A DNA stretch of 64,000 bases from assembly GCA_944386685.1 (NCBI GenBank), contig CALXCA010000008.1, forward strand, positions 198 to 64,197, written 5' to 3'. Source of the DNA: an uncultured Clostridia bacterium. GTDB taxonomy: Bacteria; Bacillota; Clostridia; TANB77; CAG-508. Below the pieces are notes generated by a model. That model worked only from the letters and a program-made list of their open reading frames with translations. It was not told the DNA's origin and did not search any database. Shown here in pieces: positions 49,810-58,142 of the stretch (position 1 is its first letter; the number at the start of each line of letters is the position of its first letter). The translations under genes were made by a program, and so were the position numbers.

Positions 49810-50010
49810 GAAGAATAGCGGGCTTTTTTGACATTTTATATCCGTTTGAGCCAAGCTTTGTTCTTGAATAGGAAAAACTTGATTTTCCTATTCAAAAACA
49901 ATAGCGGACATTTTTTTAATATATAAAATATTTAAAAAAGTCCGCGTTATTGTTTATGTGGCAATTTTACAAAATAAACATAATTGCATCTGTTTTAGTA
50001 GAGTTCTTTT
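49810..50010. repeat. composite of dispersed intergenic repeats (family D/A), two nested copies
   Basis: AATAGCGGGCTTTTTTGACATTTTATATCCGTTTGAGCCAAGCT.. and AACAATAGCGGAC..GTCCGCGTTATTGTT..TTGCATCTGTTTTAGTAGAGTTC. These are homologous to 57693-57811 and 61698-61823. Confidence 0.8.
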
Positions 50011-53000
50011 ATTTAATTACTTCTACATCTAACATTAATTTTTCATCATTAATTGAAACTTCTGTATAGTCATCTCTTTTTGCATTATATTCAACTTTTT
50101 CTGCTAAAGTTTCTTTCATAATTTCTTTTTCGTATTTTTTAACAATTTTTTCTAGTTTTTCATTATCAGAAACATATAAAATAATTTTATCTAATACTTC
50201 AAAACCTTTTTCTTTTCTCATGTTTTGAACTTTTGATAGAATTTCTCTTACATATCCTTCTTCTTTAAGTTCTGGTGTAATTGTTGTTTCTAATACTACT
50301 CCTATCTCTCCTTCACCAGCAAATGCAAAACCATCTTTTCCTTGCATTGTTATTAATAAATTTTCTGATGTTAATGCTATTTGTGTATCATCAATTTCGA
50401 TATATTCTATTCCACCATTTTTTACTTTATTTGCTAAATCCATTTGATTCATTTTTGATATTGCTTCTCTTATTTTTGGAATTAATTTTCCATATTCTTT
50501 TCCTAATACTGGTAGATTTGGTTTAATCTCAAAATGTACATAGTCTGACATATTTGCACCTAATTCTACTTGTTTAACATTTAATTCATTTTTAACTATA
50601 TTTCCATAATATTCTGGCAATGTATCTACAGATATTAACATTTTAGAAAGTGGTTGTCTGTTTTTAATATTTGCAGAATTTCTTGCACTTCTACCTAATT
50701 TAACAATTGAATATGCTAAATCCATTTCATTTTCTAATTTTTTATCTATTGATTTTTCATCTACTTCTGGCCATAAACATAAATGTACACTTTCTGGTGC
50801 TTTTTTATCTAGTCCAACTACTAGATTTTGATAGATTTCATCTGTCATAAATGGTACAAATGGTGCTGATACTTTTATTAAATTTACTAACACTGTATAT
50901 AATGTAGTATATGCTCCTATTTTATCATCTGTTAATTCTTCTCCCCAGAATCTTTCTCTATTTGTACGTACATACCAATTAGATAAACTATCTGTGAAGT
51001 CTTCAATTTCTAGTGCCGCTCCTGTTATATTGTATTTTTCTAATTTTTCATCTACTTCTTTAATTAATGTGTTTAATTTTGATAATATCCATTTATCCAT
51101 TATGTTTTCTGATTTGAAATCTTTATGTTTTAATGGATTAAACTGGTCTATTTCTGCATATAAACAATAGAATGAATATACATTCCATAATGTTGCTAAA
51201 AATCCTCTTTGAGTTTCTTGTACATTTTTTATTCCTAATCTCTTTGGTAACCAAGGACTGCTACTTACATAAAAATGCCATCTAGTTGCATCTGCCCCAA
51301 CAGTATCTAATAATTCCATTGGATCTACTCCATTTTTCTTTGATTTTGACATTTTTTGTCCATGTTCATCTAAAACATGTCCTAATACTATACAATTTTC
51401 ATATGATGATTTATCAAATAAACATGTTGATATTGTAAGTAATGTATAGAACCATCCCCTAGTTTGGTCAATTGCTTCTGATATAAATTGTGCTGGGAAG
51501 TTTTTCTCAAATGCTTCTTTGTTTTCAAATGGATAATGTAATTGTGCAAAAGGCATTGAGCCTGAATCAAACCAACAGTCTATTACTTCTTTATATCTTG
51601 TCATTTCTTTTCCACATTCTGGGCATTTTAAATGTACTTTATCTATATATGGTTTGTGCAATTCTATGTCATCTGGGCAATCAACTGACTTTTCTTTTAA
51701 TTCTGCAATGCTTCCTATACATTCTTCATGTCCACATTCACATTTCCATATTGGTAATGGTGTTCCCCAATATCTATCTCTAGAAATTCCCCAGTCTATA
51801 ACATTTTCTAAGAATTTTCCAAATCTTCCTGTTCTTATTGTATCTGGATACCATTTTATTGTGTTGTTATTAGAAATTAAATTGTCTTTAACTTTTGTCG
51901 TTGCAACAAACCAACTTTCTTTTGGATAATATAGAAGTGGTGTATCACATCTCCAACAGTGTGGATATGAGTGTATATGTTTTTCTTTACTAAATAATTT
52001 ATTATGTTCAGCTAACCATTTGCATATATCTTCATTGCAGTCTCTTACAAATTTACCTGCCCAAGGTTCAACTTCTGGAACAAATTTTCCTGATTTATCA
52101 ACTAAATTTACAAATGCTATTCCATTTTGCTTAGAAACTAAACTATCATCTTCACCATATGCAGGTGCAATGTGTACTATTCCTGTACCATCTGTTAGTG
52201 TTACATAATCTCCATGAATTACAACAAATGCTTTTCCATCTACTTTTGCAAATGGCATTAATTGCTCATATTCCATTCCAAGCATATCTGAGCCTTTGAA
52301 TTCTTTTACAATTTCATATGGTGTTTCTTTTAGCACTTGTTCTATTAAATCTTTTGCTAAAATATAGTTTTCATATTGTGGTTCATCATCTGTTCCAATA
52401 TTTGCTTTAACTTCCACATATGTATATGATTTATTTACACATAATGCTAGGTTTGATGGTAATGTCCATGGTGTTGTTGTCCATGCTAATATATATGTGT
52501 TTTCTTTTCCTTTTACTTTAAATTTAGCTATACATGTTAAATCTTTAACATCTTTATATCCTTGTGCAACTTCATGTGATGATAATGCTGTACCACATCT
52601 TGGGCAATATGGCATTACTTTATGTCCTTCATATAGTAATCCTTTTTTCCATAATTCTTTTAATGCCCACCATACTGATTCTATATAATCATTATGATAT
52701 GTTACATATGGATGATCCATGTCTACCCAGAAACCTACTTTATTTGTCATTTCTTCCCACATATGAACATATGTAAATACACTTTCTTTACATTGCTTTA
52801 CAAATTTTTCTACACCATATTCTTCAATTTGCTCTTTACCTGAAATTCCAAGTTTTTTCTCTATTTCAAGTTCAACTGGTAAGCCATGTGTATCCCATCC
52901 AGCTTTTCTATCAACATGATATCCTTTCATAACTTTATATCTTGGGATAATATCTTTCATTACCCTTGTTTCAATATGTCCAACATGTGGCTTTCCATTT

Positions 53001-53149
53001 GCTGTTGGTGGTCCATCATAAAATGTGAAATATCTTTTACCTTTATTCATATCAAAATTCTTTTGGATTATTCCTTTTTTATTCCACATTTCTGCTACTT
53101 CTCTTTCCATTCCAACAAAGCCATTTTTTAATTCTACTTTTTTATACAT
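50009..53149 (-). CDS. ileS: isoleucine-tRNA ligase (long, type-2-like form)
   Basis: [12 protein letters not shown] (HIGH) and KMSKSKKNG (KMSKS). Start set at MYKKVELK (53149) after the GGAGGAAATATT RBS. The 20-codon track extension runs through an intergenic repeat. Confidence 0.95.
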
Positions 53150-53176
53150 AATATTTCCTCCTTTTGGTAATTGGGT

Positions 53177-53231
53177 AATTTGGTGCCGGTTCTCTTTTTG
53201 ACCAGGCAATTTGGTGCCGGTTCTCTTTTTG
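53177..53231. repeat. two direct copies of AATTTGGTGCCGGTTCTCTTTTTG (31-bp period)
   Basis: Copies lie at 53177-53200 and 53208-53231. They carry the same GTGCCGGTTCTC box that flanks the arrays at 2087-2098 (reverse complement) and 16207-16218. Confidence 0.92.
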
Positions 53232-53247
53232 TCCCATTTTTGATATT

Positions 53248-53499
53248 TTACTTTGTGCTTTTCTTACTTGGTATGTTTTGCAATTCAAATCTGTATTTTT
53301 GAGTTACATTTGGGTATTTTTCGTGGTCTACTTCTGATAAAAACATTTTCTTTGGTCTTATCCATAATGCACAATCTTCATATAAACGTCTGTATACTAC
53401 AAATTCTTCTTGCGTTTCTGAATCTTTTGCGACATCTTCTACTAAGTAGTAGTCTCCTTTAAAATGTTTGTAAATTCCTTTAATTTTTAATTCTTGCAT
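53248..53499 (-). CDS. DUF1653-family protein
   Basis: 83 aa. [33 protein letters not shown] is typical of DUF1653. AGGAGGG RBS. Confidence 0.8.
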
Positions 53500-53550
53500 T
53501 TATTATTCCCTCCTTTTTTATTTTTTGATATTCTTTTATAAATTTTTTGG

Positions 53551-53579
53551 ATAATATTAAAGCACTGCTGTTATGTCAA
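53551..53579 (-). promoter_or_regulatory. near-consensus sigma-A promoter downstream of the T-box terminator
   Basis: The minus strand reads TTGACA (53579-53574), 17-nt spacer, TATTAT (53556-53551), about 50 nt upstream of the DUF1653 ATG. Confidence 0.55.
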
Positions 53580-53582
53580 AAG

Positions 53583-53684
53583 TTTGGTCGGTATTTGGGC
53601 AAATGTTTAGGCATTGTTTGGGCATTGTTTGGGCGGTATTTAGACTATTTAAACAAATCTTTGAGCAAATGTTTATATTTGGAC
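53583..53684. repeat. array of about 9 degenerate 10-12-nt units (ATTGTTTGGGC type) directly upstream of the -35
   Basis: GTTTGGTCG GTATTTGGGC AAATGTTTAGGC ATTGTTTGGGC ATTGTTTGGGC GGTATTTAGAC .. followed by the palindrome GACAATATTGTC. Confidence 0.75.
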
Positions 53685-53723
53685 AATATTGTCTAATTAT
53701 AAAATTTTATATAGCTTCCTAAA

Positions 53724-53945
53724 CAAAAAAAATCCTAACATACAAAAATTGTATATTAGGACGAATTTCTCCGCGGTACCACCTTTTTTAGTAATCTTTT
53801 ATCTATAATTAACTTTAATTTAATAATTACTCTCTCTTTATCTTTAACGCAGATTTACGTCAAAACCTACTTTTTAAATACATTAATTTTGAGTATACTT
53901 TGATAAAAAATATTTCAAAATATCTTAATATTTTTTTATAGTATA
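53724..53945 (-). promoter_or_regulatory. T-box riboswitch leader (presumed Ile) with an intrinsic terminator
   Basis: On the minus strand: an F-box-like GCGTTA (53850-53845), T-box core GGTGGTACCGCGG (53783-53771), and a terminator TCCTAATATACAA-TTT-TTGTATGTTAGGA plus T8 (53761-53724). The specifier codon is not resolved. Confidence 0.7.
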
Positions 53946-54345
53946 ATAGAATAAGTATTTATGTTCAGTTTTGCAATTTAACTAGGTGATAACATAAGTT
54001 ATATTTCGTATTTTTATTTTACAATATTTATTTTATTTTTTATTCGTAATTCTTACTAATATAAAATATAAAAAATTAATTATATAAATATTAATTAATA
54101 ACTTATAGCTATTTAAGCTAAATAATTTTTACTTTCAAACTCTCACCTTCTGTTTGATTCTCTGTAAAGATATTTTATTATTTGTATTGTCCTAGTTATT
54201 ACTTTTATTTTTTTGTTATTATATCACATTTTTTTCATTTTGCAATAGGTAAATCAAAATTTTATTTATATTGTTGATAAATTTAATATAATAATATAAA
54301 TAACTACTCTTTACAAAATTATAAAGAATGTAATAAAATTATAAT

Positions 54346-55053
54346 TTATAAATTATTTATTACTTTAAAAATTAAATTTTTTAATTTTGGTTTTTCTAAT
54401 TCAAAATAATTAAAATATTTTTTTAATATTTCTTCTTCACAATCGAAATACATATTATTTATTGCATGTTTTATGTCATTATGTATAGTATTTATTGGCT
54501 TATTATATTTTATAGATAAAATTGGAAATATTTCTTTTGACAGATTAACATTCCAAATATAGTTTCTACTATAAACTTCATAAATACAATCAATTAAATA
54601 CTGAGTTCCATTATAAGAAAATTTAAAATTTAATTTTGAAAGTTCCTCTGCAATTTTTAATTTTAAATTTAAAAAGCTATATTTATCTACATAATTTGTT
54701 ATTACCTCCACTATCTTTATATTTTCAATTGGATTTATTATATAATCAAATACATAATATTCTTCTTTTATAGTCAATGATTTATAACCAAATCCAACAA
54801 TTGCTATTATCGATTTTCTATATTTATATAATTTTTCATTAAATAAAAATTCAAAAAAATTTAATTTTTTTATATTTATTAAATTTGTATCTAATATTAT
54901 AAGGTCTACTATTTGTTTTTTTTAAAAATATACAGCTTCTTCTAAACTATAAACAACACTGTAAATTTTTACATTCAAATTACTTTGAGAAATACAATTA
55001 ATTATTTTTTTACATTTAAATATATCATTTTCTATAATTAATATTCTAGTCAT
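54346..55053 (-). pseudogene. Spo0A-like response regulator (receiver plus Spo0A_C-type DNA-binding domain) with an in-frame TAA
   Basis: ATG at 55053 after a GGAGGA RBS. The receiver region reads MTRILIIENDIF..DLIILD..YVFDYIINP. The in-frame stop is at 54924-54922 (codon 44). The C-terminal 143 aa resemble Spo0A_C. Confidence 0.6.
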
Positions 55054-55152
55054 TATTTCCTCCTAATTAAATTTGTAATAACTCTTTTTGCTTTTTTAGC
55101 TTTTTTTACTTTTTCTTGATTTTTCCTCTATTTTTCTTTAAAATAATTTTAG

Positions 55153-55181
55153 TTGTAAAGTTAATTTACAATTAGTATAAT
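55153..55181 (+). promoter_or_regulatory. sigma-A-type promoter of the secreted-protein cassette
   Basis: TTGTAA (55153-55158), 17-nt spacer, TATAAT (55176-55181). Confidence 0.55.
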
Positions 55182-55271
55182 TCTATGAGTCTAAACCATC
55201 CTTAAATTAAGTATGGTTTTAGATTAGATGGAAGAGAGAATCAAGCAATAGAATAACGGAGTAAGCATACT

Positions 55272-55733
55272 ATGAACATGAAAAAAAGAAAAAATTTCTT
55301 CATTATTATTCTCACAATAGCTTTGTTTATTACTACTTGCTGTTCTTCAGCATTTGCTGCCGGCGTTGAAACGTGGTATGGTGAATGGGTTCAAGAACCT
55401 GTTATGACTGTTACCAATAACAACCTTACACCTGTAAAAACTATTGGTGTATCTGGCACATTACATGTGGCATGTGGAGTAAGAGGTCGACCTGATCTTG
55501 AGCCTTCCGGATGTCCTCTTGTACAAGTAACAATGCAAATTCGTGATTTAAATGGTAATGTCCTCGCTAGCGGTACCGTTAGAGAAGACGCTTTTTTACC
55601 TCAAATTCACCTCGATTTGCCTGTTACACAGGGTCAAAAGATTCAAATATTTTTTGATGTAAGCAGTGTATCCTACAATCCTAATAGAAACTATAGAATT
55701 GCAGATATCAACTACGCACATGAAATATATTAA
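55272..55733 (+). CDS. secreted protein of unknown function (153 aa), G+C-richer cassette
   Basis: Signal peptide MNMKKRKNFFIIILTIALFITTCCSSAFA|AG, a GGAG RBS, and its own promoter and terminator. It is flanked by a 17/18-bp inverted repeat (55227-55244 / 55771-55788). Confidence 0.65.
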   Translation: MNMKKRKNFFIIILTIALFITTCCSSAFAAGVETWYGEWVQEPVMTVTNNNLTPVKTIGVSGTLHVACGVRGRPDLEPSGCPLVQVTMQIRDLNGNVLASGTVREDAFLPQIHLDLPVTQGQKIQIFFDVSSVSYNPNRNYRIADINYAHEIY

Positions 55734-55791
55734 TCTTTGACTATGTAGTTCACGTCTAAACTCTAATTAATTGATTCTCTCTTCTATCGAA

Positions 55792-55822
55792 GTGGTATTG
55801 CTTTAGCAATACCACTTTTTTT
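55792..55822 (+). terminator. rho-independent terminator
   Basis: GTGGTATTGC-TTTA-GCAATACCAC followed by TTTTTTT. Confidence 0.85.
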
Positions 55823-55880
55823 ATAAATATAAAATTTTAGTACAACTTAAGCAGTATGAATTTTTCTGATATTATATTTT

Positions 55881-57020
55881 TTAGTCATTAAAAAATTCAG
55901 ATTCTTCTCCTCCTATAATTTCACCAGTTGTTGCATCCACAAAGTATTTCTTGTTATAAAATTTTTTTACTGTTTCAATATTTCCATCTTTAGGGATTGT
56001 ATTTTTATCATGTTCAATATTAACAACCCAAACATTTCTTGTTGTATCAGTTGTTTTTAATTCTCCTTTTTCATTAGTTACATTATTTTCTAAACAATAT
56101 ATAAAAATATTCATTTTTTCTATAGACAGTTCAGCGGAAACATTTGAAATTCTTATATTACTAAATTCATTTTCTTTATTTTTAGCAATTTCAATAGCTT
56201 CTTCTTTAGAAATTACAATTGGATTTTTTTCATAATTATCTTCATTTTTCATGCTTATAGAATAAATAATAATATTATCATTATAAACAGAAAAAGCAAT
56301 TGTAGAAATACTTTCTTTATTATAAATATTATTATTATAGACTTTTGCAAAACTTACTTGCCATGAATCATTAGCATATTTCCCTGAAACAATGCTTTGT
56401 TTTTTTGTTTCAACGATTTTATAATTATTGTTTTCCTCAAAAAAGTTTAAATCACTATAAATTTGGGTTGCAATTTCATTAACTTTATCTTCAGAAATTG
56501 TATCACAAACAATATTCTTATCTAAAAATGAATTATCTCCAAAATATTCTAGTTCTCCTGTTTTAGGATTTAAATTAATTAGAATATTTTCAGCTCTTAA
56601 TAAATAATGTATAGAATAATTTGAGTCATATCCTTTTAATAAATTTATTTGCGTAATTGTAGTATTTTCATATCCTAATTTTGTTAATAACTGATTACCA
56701 ATTTCAGTTGCTTTTTCTTCTGATATAAATTCTGATTTTTCATAGTCTTCTATATCTTCTTTTATTATTTTTTCTTCTTCATTTTTACTTAAAATAATCG
56801 GATCTTTCCATATATTCTCATATAAATAATTAACAGCCATTACACCTGTACATCCCATAATAAAGCAACTTGTTAATAAAACAATTTTACAAAGTATGGA
56901 ATGTGATAAAATTTTGCTTTCTTTTTTTGAAAAAGCTTTTTTTATAGAAAGTTCATATGAAAAAGGTTTTTCAATTTCATCCTTTAAAATTTTTTTAATT
57001 TCATCATCAAAATTTTTCAT
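55881..57020 (-). CDS. membrane-anchored putative anti-sigma factor with a large ectodomain
   Basis: 379 aa. It overlaps the upstream sigma gene by 14 nt and has a single TM helix (ILCKIVLLTSCFIMGCTGVMAV). The call rests on position and architecture only. Confidence 0.5.
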   Translation of the reverse strand: MKNFDDEIKKILKDEIEKPFSYELSIKKAFSKKESKILSHSILCKIVLLTSCFIMGCTGVMAVNYLYENIWKDPIILSKNEEEKIIKEDIEDYEKSEFISEEKATEIGNQLLTKLGYENTTITQINLLKGYDSNYSIHYLLRAENILINLNPKTGELEYFGDNSFLDKNIVCDTISEDKVNEIATQIYSDLNFFEENNNYKIVETKKQSIVSGKYANDSWQVSFAKVYNNNIYNKESISTIAFSVYNDNIIIYSISMKNEDNYEKNPIVISKEEAIEIAKNKENEFSNIRISNVSAELSIEKMNIFIYCLENNVTNEKGELKTTDTTRNVWVVNIEHDKNTIPKDGNIETVKKFYNKKYFVDATTGEIIGGEESEFFND

Positions 57021-57582
57021 AACTATTATTTCCTTTCTTAATATTTGTTGTTTCTTGATTAATAATTGTTGATTTTAATTTCTGTCTTGCCCTATATAAA
57101 TGAGTATTTATAGTATTTTCTTTCATTTTTAAAATTTCTTTTATTTCTTTAACAGAATATTCTTCCATATAATATAAGACTACAATAATTCTCTCTTTAT
57201 AATTTAGATTTTTTATTATATCATAAAAGTTTAATTTATTATCCACTTCATTAATATTATTAGTTTTTAAATAATCTAAATTATATTCTTCAATTGAAAC
57301 ATCTTTTTTATATTTTTTTCTATAAATTCTATTACATTTGTTTATTAAAATTTTTATAATCCACTTTTTAAATTTAGTTATATCATTAAGTTTTTTTATT
57401 GATTTATAAGTTTCGATCATTGTTTCTTGAATAGCATCTGATATATCAGCTTCATTTGAAATTCTAGTTTTGGCTATTTTGTATAATTCATCATTTATTG
57501 ATAATATTAATTGTGTAAAAGCCTCTTCATTACCACTTTGAGCACTTAAAATTAATTCTTCCAATTTTCCCTCCTTTATCAT
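57007..57582 (-). CDS. sigma-70 family (ECF-like) sigma factor
   Basis: 191 aa. Region 2 (DAIQETMIETYKSIKKL) and a region 4 HTH (YSVKEIKEILKMKENTINTHLYRARQKLK). An alternative TTG start lies 6 codons in, after AAGGAGGG. Confidence 0.75.
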   Translation of the reverse strand: MIKEGKLEELILSAQSGNEEAFTQLILSINDELYKIAKTRISNEADISDAIQETMIETYKSIKKLNDITKFKKWIIKILINKCNRIYRKKYKKDVSIEEYNLDYLKTNNINEVDNKLNFYDIIKNLNYKERIIVVLYYMEEYSVKEIKEILKMKENTINTHLYRARQKLKSTIINQETTNIKKGNNSYEKF

Positions 57583-57692
57583 TTTTATTGAATACTACAA
57601 ATACATTTATTAAGAGTCCTTTATTTCTTTTTTATATTTCAATTTTTATAAAATTTTTTACTAATTTAAGTTATTTGGATTAACTATTAAGG

Positions 57693-57916
57693 AACAATAG
57701 CGGACTTTTTTAGACATTTTTATGTTTATAACATTTTAAAATCCACGTCATTGTTCGTGCGCCAATTTTACGAAGTAAAATTGTGTGCATCTGTTTGAGC
57801 GAAGCTCTTTTATTGAATAGGAAAAAGCGATTTTTCTTTTGAAAATAAAATTTTTATATTTAAAATTCTATTTTCGCTTTGAGTTGCGAAATCTAAAGTT
57901 TCATATTGTTTCCTAT
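57693..57916. repeat. composite of dispersed intergenic repeat families D, A and C
   Basis: GAACAATAGCGGAC..TCCACGTCATTGTTCGTGCGCC..GTGCATCTGTTTGAGCGAAGCTCTTTTATTGAATAGGAAAAA..ATTTTCGCTTTGAGTTGCGAAATCTAAAGTTTCATATTGTTTCCTAT. Confidence 0.85.
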
Positions 57917-57921
57917 TGTAT

Positions 57922-57990
57922 AAAAAAGCCCTAACATACAAAAATTGTATATTAGGGCGAATAATTCCGCAGTAACACCTAATCTTCGAT
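57922..57990 (-). promoter_or_regulatory. degenerate T-box 3' domain plus terminator, paralog of the ileS leader end
   Basis: The minus strand reads ATTAGGTGTTACTGCGGAATTATTCGCCCTAATATACAATTTTTGTATGTTAGGGCTTTTTT. The 27-nt terminator core is identical to the one at 53734-53760. The tRNA-acceptor-pairing TGGT is changed to TGTT. Confidence 0.5.
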
Positions 57991-58142
57991 TTCATTAATT
58001 CAAAAATATTTTTTTCCTAAATCTTTTATTAGAGTTGAAGTCGCAAATTGCGACTTCAAATATTCGCATTCATTATTACTTAATTGAAAGCAAAATTCAA
58101 TTGGAAAACGCTCAATATATATAAGGATAGTTTATGAAATTT

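Follow-up and report, generated by a model that had tools for sequence, protein, structure and literature searches.

T-box leaders of Firmicute aminoacyl-tRNA synthetase genes have a textbook arrangement, in which the terminator is followed directly by the gene. Promoters that depend on activators of the OmpR/PhoB class typically have a poor -35 box. In parC-type and iteron-type arrays (plasmid R1 ParR-parC; iteron plasmids), an autoregulated promoter is surrounded by direct repeats of 11 bp or 22 bp, and the plc promoter of Clostridium perfringens is stimulated by phased A-tracts upstream of its -35 box. At the RNA level, the rut sites onto which Rho loads are unstructured and contain more C than G. 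In Staphylococcus aureus, STAR elements are G+C-rich intergenic direct repeats with the sequence T(G/A/T)TGTTG(G/T)GGCCC(C/A) (PMC3532100).

The ileS locus described here is located in a window (the whole stretch of DNA that was analysed, 64,000 nt) of a 1.93-Mb draft genome with 25.8% G+C from an uncultured Clostridia bacterium of the gut, to which MAGs with the labels ‘uncultured Clostridia bacterium’, ‘Clostridium sp. 28_17’ and ‘Clostridium sp. CAG:780’ are related. On the minus strand, the order is a promoter (P1), an isoleucine T-box leader, an insertion, DUF1653, a 98-nt spacer and ileS (Table 1). The DUF1653 start codon is the ATG at 53499-53497, and the sole PDB relative of the protein is a weak match, the uncharacterised protein 3be3. 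Gene calls for ileS on strain contigs are 1046 aa long and carry the tRNA-synt_1 and Anticodon_1 domains. A literature search found no link of DUF1653 to ileS and no description of a second promoter behind an ileS T-box.

Table 1. Features of the ileS leader and operon (positions within the window)
Feature	Position	Strand	Basis
P1, promoter of the T-box leader: TTGCAA, 16-nt spacer, TATAAT, with a preceding TG (tgtgaTATAAT)	54218..54245	-	promoter scan and sequence
ileS T-box leader with large A+T-rich expansions	53724..54200	-	Rfam, terminator search, alignment to relatives
T-box Stem I	54182-54121	-	alignment with relatives
T-box specifier AUC (isoleucine)	53990-53988	-	alignment with relatives
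T-box core GGTGGTACCGCGG	53783-53771	-	alignment with relatives
T-box terminator stem	53762-53732, then U-run (U8) to ~53724	-	terminator search
Lineage-specific insertion from the T-box terminator to the DUF1653 ribosome-binding site; holds the palindrome, the array and P2	53520..53722	-	locus comparison
Perfect palindrome GACAATATTGTC	53682..53693	.	sequence
Distal degenerate ‘units’ (TTGCTCAAAGAT, TTTGTTTAAATA and similar)	53646..53681	-	lag-11 periodicity not significant alone
Core 11-nt tandem array: GTCTAAATACC, GCCCAAACAAT, GCCCAAACAAT, GCCTAAACATTT, GCCCAAATACC, GACCAAACTT	53580..53645	-	Tandem Repeats Finder, lag-11 periodicity
P2, candidate sigma-A-type promoter: TTGACA 53579-53574, 17-nt spacer, TATTAT 53556-53551	53551..53579	-	promoter scan, 11/12 match
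Shine-Dalgarno GGAGGG (53513-53508) and DUF1653 gene (53499-53248, 83 aa)	53248..53513	-	ORF list; Pfam PF07866, E 2.3e-24
Two tandem 31-nt modules, CAAAAAGAGAACCGGCACCAAATT(G/A)CC..., in the DUF1653-ileS spacer	53170..53231	-	sequence; dispersed family
ileS, real start ATG at 53149 preceded by AAAGGAGG	50009..53149	-	sequence and ORF list

The T-box leader has kept its elements intact; alignment with relatives located the AUC specifier and GGTGGTACCGCGG as well as the AGAGA and GGUG motifs, and the terminator is intact too. In the Rfam search (RF00230) it was recovered as two pieces that scored 49.9 and 27.1 bits, below the gathering score of 93, because two A+T-rich expansions interrupt the leader. 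When aligned with relatives, the first expansion (~126 nt; window 53996-54121) falls within the 3' strand of Stem I, immediately ahead of the AUC specifier, and the second (roughly 70-90 nt; window ~53870-53960) falls further on. Both are common to the sister species, G102, and shorter versions occur in L051, the closest relative without the array. A promoter of the TGnTATAAT type, like that of P1, is also found upstream of the T-box in relatives. Beyond P1, a 3.8-kb segment (window 54266-58054) contains a Spo0A_C-domain gene and ORFs of 153, 379 and 191 aa. G102 lacks it and has cysK immediately upstream of the T-box promoter. The cysK-proximal edge of this segment (~57990-57900) holds a diverged copy of the T-box 3' end, with its terminator and ~35 nt behind it.

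From the end of the U-run at ~53724 to the ATG at 53499 there are ~224 nt, in agreement with the ~225 nt given by an earlier, sequence-only reading of this DNA. That reading also took the stretch to have been inserted between the T-box terminator and DUF1653, and within the genus the stretch is missing from all but one sister species. A DNA search of 338 species genomes of the genus found the ~200-nt insertion only in the species of the window (G000) and in G102; two weak DNA matches in G140 and G189 were rejected as A+T-rich coding sequence. A pattern search of 201 genus genomes gave 3 matches, one of which (in G042) is an unrelated repeat of 4 x 11 nt within an ORF of 457 aa. This last repeat, ATCGCCCAAAC x4 (L143 1499-1545, G042:C49), also occurs at L159, L161 and L171, and its hosts are Clostridia MAGs and one Prevotellaceae MAG. 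Three of its units encode the 11-residue repeat IAQTSPKHRPN, so that a change by one unit would cause a frameshift. No second copy of the insertion was found in the G000 genome or in 40 related genomes, the matches in these relatives being low-complexity, A-rich matches to the ribosome-binding-site region.

In relatives, the terminator is separated from the ribosome-binding site by ~30-60 nt. Where relatives have a T-box ahead of DUF1653 (27 loci), its core and the ATG are 93 nt apart at the median, versus ~270 nt here, and in L051, whose DUF1653 is 94% identical, the terminator lies ~55 nt from the ATG. Given these short distances and the restriction of the insert to G000 and G102, the ~200-nt stretch is a recent, lineage-specific insertion. 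Six T-box-DUF1653 loci carry inserts of their own, unrelated to this one and 172-263 nt long, and only one of them, L052, has a promoter-like site matching at least 10 of 12 positions. In L052 (~1400-1500), the insert between the ileS T-box and DUF1653 is ~220 nt long and contains TTGATT-17-TATAAT ~50 nt before the ATG; here a promoter may have arisen independently behind the terminator.

Between G000 and G102, the T-box leader is 99.2% identical, the insertion 98.9% (2 substitutions in 186 aligned nt, plus unit indels), DUF1653 96.8% and ileS about 96-98%, and the window averages 96.4% over its coding and 95.8% over its intergenic DNA. This low divergence could reflect constraint on the whole leader. 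It is not decisive, as the blocks that neighbour the leader are also above average (97.7-98.4%) and recombination is possible.

The 3' half of the insertion holds the tandem array. Tandem Repeats Finder reported a repeat of period 11 with 3.6 copies and 86% matches at 53594-53634, and a super-repeat of period 23 with 2.9 copies at 53577-53641. Lag-11 self-matching gave z=5.1 over 53574-53695 (122 nt) and z=5.8 in the core at 53585-53645, and the distal part tested alone (53646-53695, 50 nt) showed no significant lag-11 periodicity (z 0.6-1.5). The sequence-only reading had counted about 9 repeats. Six of these are solid and the three or four others are weak resemblances, which makes that count generous, and the best-conserved pair that it singled out is exact, GCCCAAACAAT occurring at 53634-53624 and 53623-53613 with zero mismatches. 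The perfect palindrome that it named, GACAATATTGTC, is also present, just outside the interval it had delimited. Per kb of intergenic DNA, the genome has 0.087 perfect 12-nt palindromes that contain four or more G/C, and in this DNA GACAATATTGTC is the only instance of GACA-W4-TGTC. On another contig of the genome, at C3:17105-17165 (C3:17113), there is a cluster of Spo0A-box-like words (TTCGACA, TTGTCAA and TGTCGAA). The first pair in this cluster resembles the palindrome region of the ileS leader, TTAGACAATATTGTCCAA, which is without the central CG of the boxes.

The array is polymorphic among strains. Contigs that encode a DUF1653 identical to that of G000 (10 places) or of G102 (10 places) formed the strain set, from which 19 metagenomic contigs of both species were compared, 18 of them spanning the array. 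In these 18 contigs, the distance from the palindrome to the -35 box is 102, 91 or 82 nt, with 7 sequence alleles; lengths differ by one 11-nt unit or by 9+11 nt, and the flanks are identical. Since the length steps are whole units and the flanks do not change, the array behaves as a slippage-prone tandem repeat, that is, one subject to slipped-strand mispairing. Its units lie head to tail and are alike beyond chance, as is typical of a variable-number tandem repeat (VNTR). The 29-nt core of P2 is identical in G102 and in 18/19 strain contigs, the nineteenth of which ends upstream of the core.

The near-consensus TTGACA-N17-TATTAT promoter that the sequence-only reading had placed immediately 3' of the array was recovered with 11/12 positions matching. 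The -35 hexamer matches at 6/6 positions and the -10 hexamer at 5/6, the spacer falls within the 17±1 nt of sigma-A promoters, and the site faces the gene. The predicted transcription start is near 53544, and the -10 box ends 52 nt before the DUF1653 ATG. Sites matching at least 11 of 12 positions numbered 354 genome-wide in a first count, 224 of them intergenic. Within the intergenic segments taken for the shuffle control, 212 were observed versus 32.3 expected under a first-order Markov model, a 6.5-fold excess, and most such sites are therefore genuine promoters. By arithmetic from the Markov rate, a site of the quality of P2 would arise by chance in 200 nt on the right strand with a frequency of ~1%. 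P2 is without the TG extension carried by the T-box promoters in these genomes, which counts against it. Taken together, these features of the sequence make it fairly probable that P2 is active. The proposal of a second, T-box-independent promoter is thus plausible on account of the excess of intergenic sites (212 vs 32) and the invariant 29-nt core, but its regulation through an activator array did not find support.

The explanation that we favour, with moderate confidence, is that a young tandem repeat of variable copy number lies in a leader insertion together with a probably active, constitutive P2. The ~200-nt insertion would have entered the ileS leader recently, in a lineage comprising the G000 species and one sister, and its 3' half would be an ordinary slippage-prone repeat with six clear 11-nt units and no dedicated binding partner. 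P2, as a housekeeping-type promoter, would yield a DUF1653-ileS transcript with a short leader, bypassing the T-box. Two inputs would then reach the operon, namely P1 transcripts gated by the T-box and uncharged tRNA-Ile, and a constitutive floor of expression provided by P2. The layout of the locus, its restriction to one lineage, the length polymorphism by units, the uniqueness of the unit within the genome and the statistical strength of the promoter match are established by the analysis; we infer that P2 is active, that it is not regulated, and that the array is functionally neutral and at most a spacer between the terminator and P2. Two further observations count against this explanation. 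It is odd that a constitutive promoter should stand behind a T-box that is intact and conserved (99.2% between the two species), and the array tract is unusually strong in its excess of C over G and its lack of structure, which could point to a role in RNA.

The sequence-only reading had suggested the array as a platform for an activator of the OmpR/PhoB type. More generally, a direct-repeat-binding protein, either of that type or a ribbon-helix-helix repressor as in ParR-parC, might coat the 11-bp units and regulate P2. The units do recur at about one helical turn, the array runs up to the -35 box, seven genes of the OmpR family (Trans_reg_C) are present in the genome, and the insertion has accumulated few substitutions between the sister species. 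Length alleles that differ by about one helical turn would also keep an upstream site on the same face of the helix, but steps of one unit are the expected product of slippage anyway, and the number of units varies freely. The -35 box is not weak or missing as it would be at an activator-dependent promoter; TTGACA matches at 6/6 positions and, with a 17-nt spacer, needs no activator. No cognate regulator gene appears to be linked to the locus; 0 of the seven OmpR-family genes lie on the ileS contig, where the neighbouring regulator gene is of the Spo0A_C type. A genome search for further arrays of the unit, which the sequence-only reading had suggested as a check, found none in the 1.93 Mb, at promoters or elsewhere, and there is therefore no regulon. 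Array 9-mers are not over-represented in the genome, and single intergenic TTG[CT]C[CT]AAA words share no common promoter context. Together with a single transcription start upstream of the T-box, absence of the array from related ileS leaders had been named in advance as a result that would speak against the proposal. Conservation of the array stops at the two sister species, which counts against a binding platform. We therefore regard an operator or activator platform as quite unlikely.

Two other binding proposals were rejected. A universal GCCCAAAYA binding motif was sought by searching a three-unit pattern and a reversed control across 596 Gb of genomes; the pattern had 21 matches, spread over many phyla, versus 72 for the control. 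These are generic tandem repeats, and the word is therefore no recognition site of wide occurrence. DUF1653 as the DNA-binding partner was set aside as well, its PDB relative being uncharacterised and DUF1653-ileS loci elsewhere having no array.

A different role would place the array in RNA: on transcripts extending past the terminator, Rho would load at it as a rut site. Such a tract, C-rich, G-poor and unstructured with YC every 11-12 nt, would provide a second checkpoint, one governed by whether the downstream gene is translated. The untranslated transcript does contain a tract of ~80 nt with more C than G that is predicted to be unstructured. The best 78-nt window has C=25 and G=7, which ranks it in the uppermost 0.11% among intergenic windows. 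Of 200 shuffles, 193 fold better than the leader (z=+1.58), whose array is predicted to be unpaired, and the genome contains a rho gene (Rho_RNA_bind, 99 bits). This composition is, however, a simple consequence of the repeat unit, and the other C-rich stand-alone arrays of the genome, which are of the 22-nt type, show no bias toward the sense strand (23 vs 23). The array is missing from all other ileS leaders of the genus and varies in copy number, and the ribosome-binding site is only ~70 nt downstream of it, so that translation would normally block Rho. A rut site is thus very unlikely. Less credible still, to the point of being hard to entertain, is the idea that the array is curved DNA in which phased A-tracts upstream of the -35 box stimulate P2. 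AAA runs do recur every 11-12 bp, but the tracts are only 3 nt long, their mean period of ~11.2 bp drifts out of helical phase, and the phasing power of A/T-tracts at periods of 10-11.5 bp reaches only the 59th-82nd percentile of the intergenic windows of the genome. Taken as a whole, the reading in which P2 and the 11-bp array form a regulated, T-box-independent second promoter, acting via a direct-repeat-binding protein or via Rho on read-through RNA, seems to us a poor prospect; it is equally doubtful that they would represent a recently evolved layer of control in a lineage whose T-box has become bloated by A+T-rich expansions.

The genome is rich in other short repeats, and the array could be debris of these dispersed G+C-rich families, a decayed mobile or recombining repeat beside which the promoter is incidental. 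The 22-nt repeat AAAAAGGGACCGACCCCAACAC has about 290 copies (counted as GACCGACCCC with one mismatch allowed) in about 100 arrays genome-wide, for example at C8:2078-2258, C5:25796-26075, C13:20100-20372 and C17:35786-36100. Many of these arrays flank, in inverted orientation, a conserved palindromic core of ~160 nt (..CGCTTACGCGGTATTGCAAAA..), and contigs often end inside them. The 31-nt GAGAACCGGCACC module (GAGAACCGGCAC) has about 75 dispersed copies. The two families each show a likeness to the STAR repeats of S. aureus. Both occur in the DUF1653-ileS spacer of the same operon and swap there among strains. This spacer (window 53149-53247) was compared across the window, L131-L140, L251-L260 and L142, and is hypervariable, with 8 alleles among the 19 strain contigs reaching it and nearly identical coding flanks. 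Depending on the strain, it contains two or three 31-nt modules, four or five 22-nt GGGACCGACCCCA repeats, or units of both kinds, the last two contents being those of G102-type strains.

Further points in favour of such an origin are that the words ACCGACC-AAAC and ACCGCCCAAAC recall the 22-nt core ACCGACCCCAAC, that a possible decayed module is located at the same position in L051, and that TTGTTTGGGC on the G-rich strand is one base from the STAR core TGTTG(G/T)GGCCC (PMC3532100). Measured against 500 dinucleotide-preserving shuffles, however, local alignment of the array to the 22-nt and 31-nt consensus sequences is no better than chance (z=-0.15 and -0.42), and homology to either family was rejected on this basis. 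Members of dispersed families are found in many copies; the array and the insertion are unique in the genome, the 9-mers of the array are no more frequent than expected, and the insertion has no second copy in G000 or the 40 related genomes. By sequence resemblance, kinship of the array with the dispersed families is possible. As a full account of the locus, descent from such debris is unlikely, although we give it more weight than any of the regulatory readings.

If P2 fires, an essential synthetase operon under T-box control would have gained a bypass promoter through a recent insertion in its leader, providing a small, concrete example of riboswitch control loosened in evolution. The leaders and intra-operon spacers of these uncultured gut Clostridia are hot spots of tandem-repeat turnover and are useful for strain typing. 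The locus also cautions that periodic repeats beside promoters are not to be read as regulator sites. Apart from the possible bypass promoter and the turnover of repeats, the feature is ordinary.

Compared with the T-box leaders of RF00230, the upstream part of the locus is a regular isoleucine T-box with an AUC specifier, a core and a terminator-antiterminator, but differs in two large A+T-rich expansions and in what is, from its sequence, a probable second promoter behind the terminator. The array shares with parC-type and iteron-type arrays the 11-bp direct repeats, here also with a 22-23-bp super-period, beside a core promoter. In contrast to those systems, its repeats flank the promoter on a single side and are variable in number, there is no par or rep gene, and the downstream DUF1653 and ileS are array-free in all other genomes. 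As in STAR, short G+C-rich direct repeats of strain-variable copy number and no known function occupy an intergenic region of an A+T-rich Firmicute, and both TTGTTTGGGC and TGTTGGGGTCGG, the G-rich strand of the 22-nt repeat of this genome, resemble the STAR core. STAR repeats alternate with recurring sequence of 40 bp or more at many loci, whereas the array here is strictly tandem and unique. The bacterial intergenic VNTRs, generated by slipped-strand mispairing, offer a further parallel: their short units are also arranged head to tail, are gained and lost whole between strains whose flanks otherwise agree, are confined to a narrow lineage and need no partner protein. The array differs from them in its 11-nt unit, which is G+C-richer than the genome (26% G+C), and in its position directly against a -35 box in the riboswitch leader of an essential gene.
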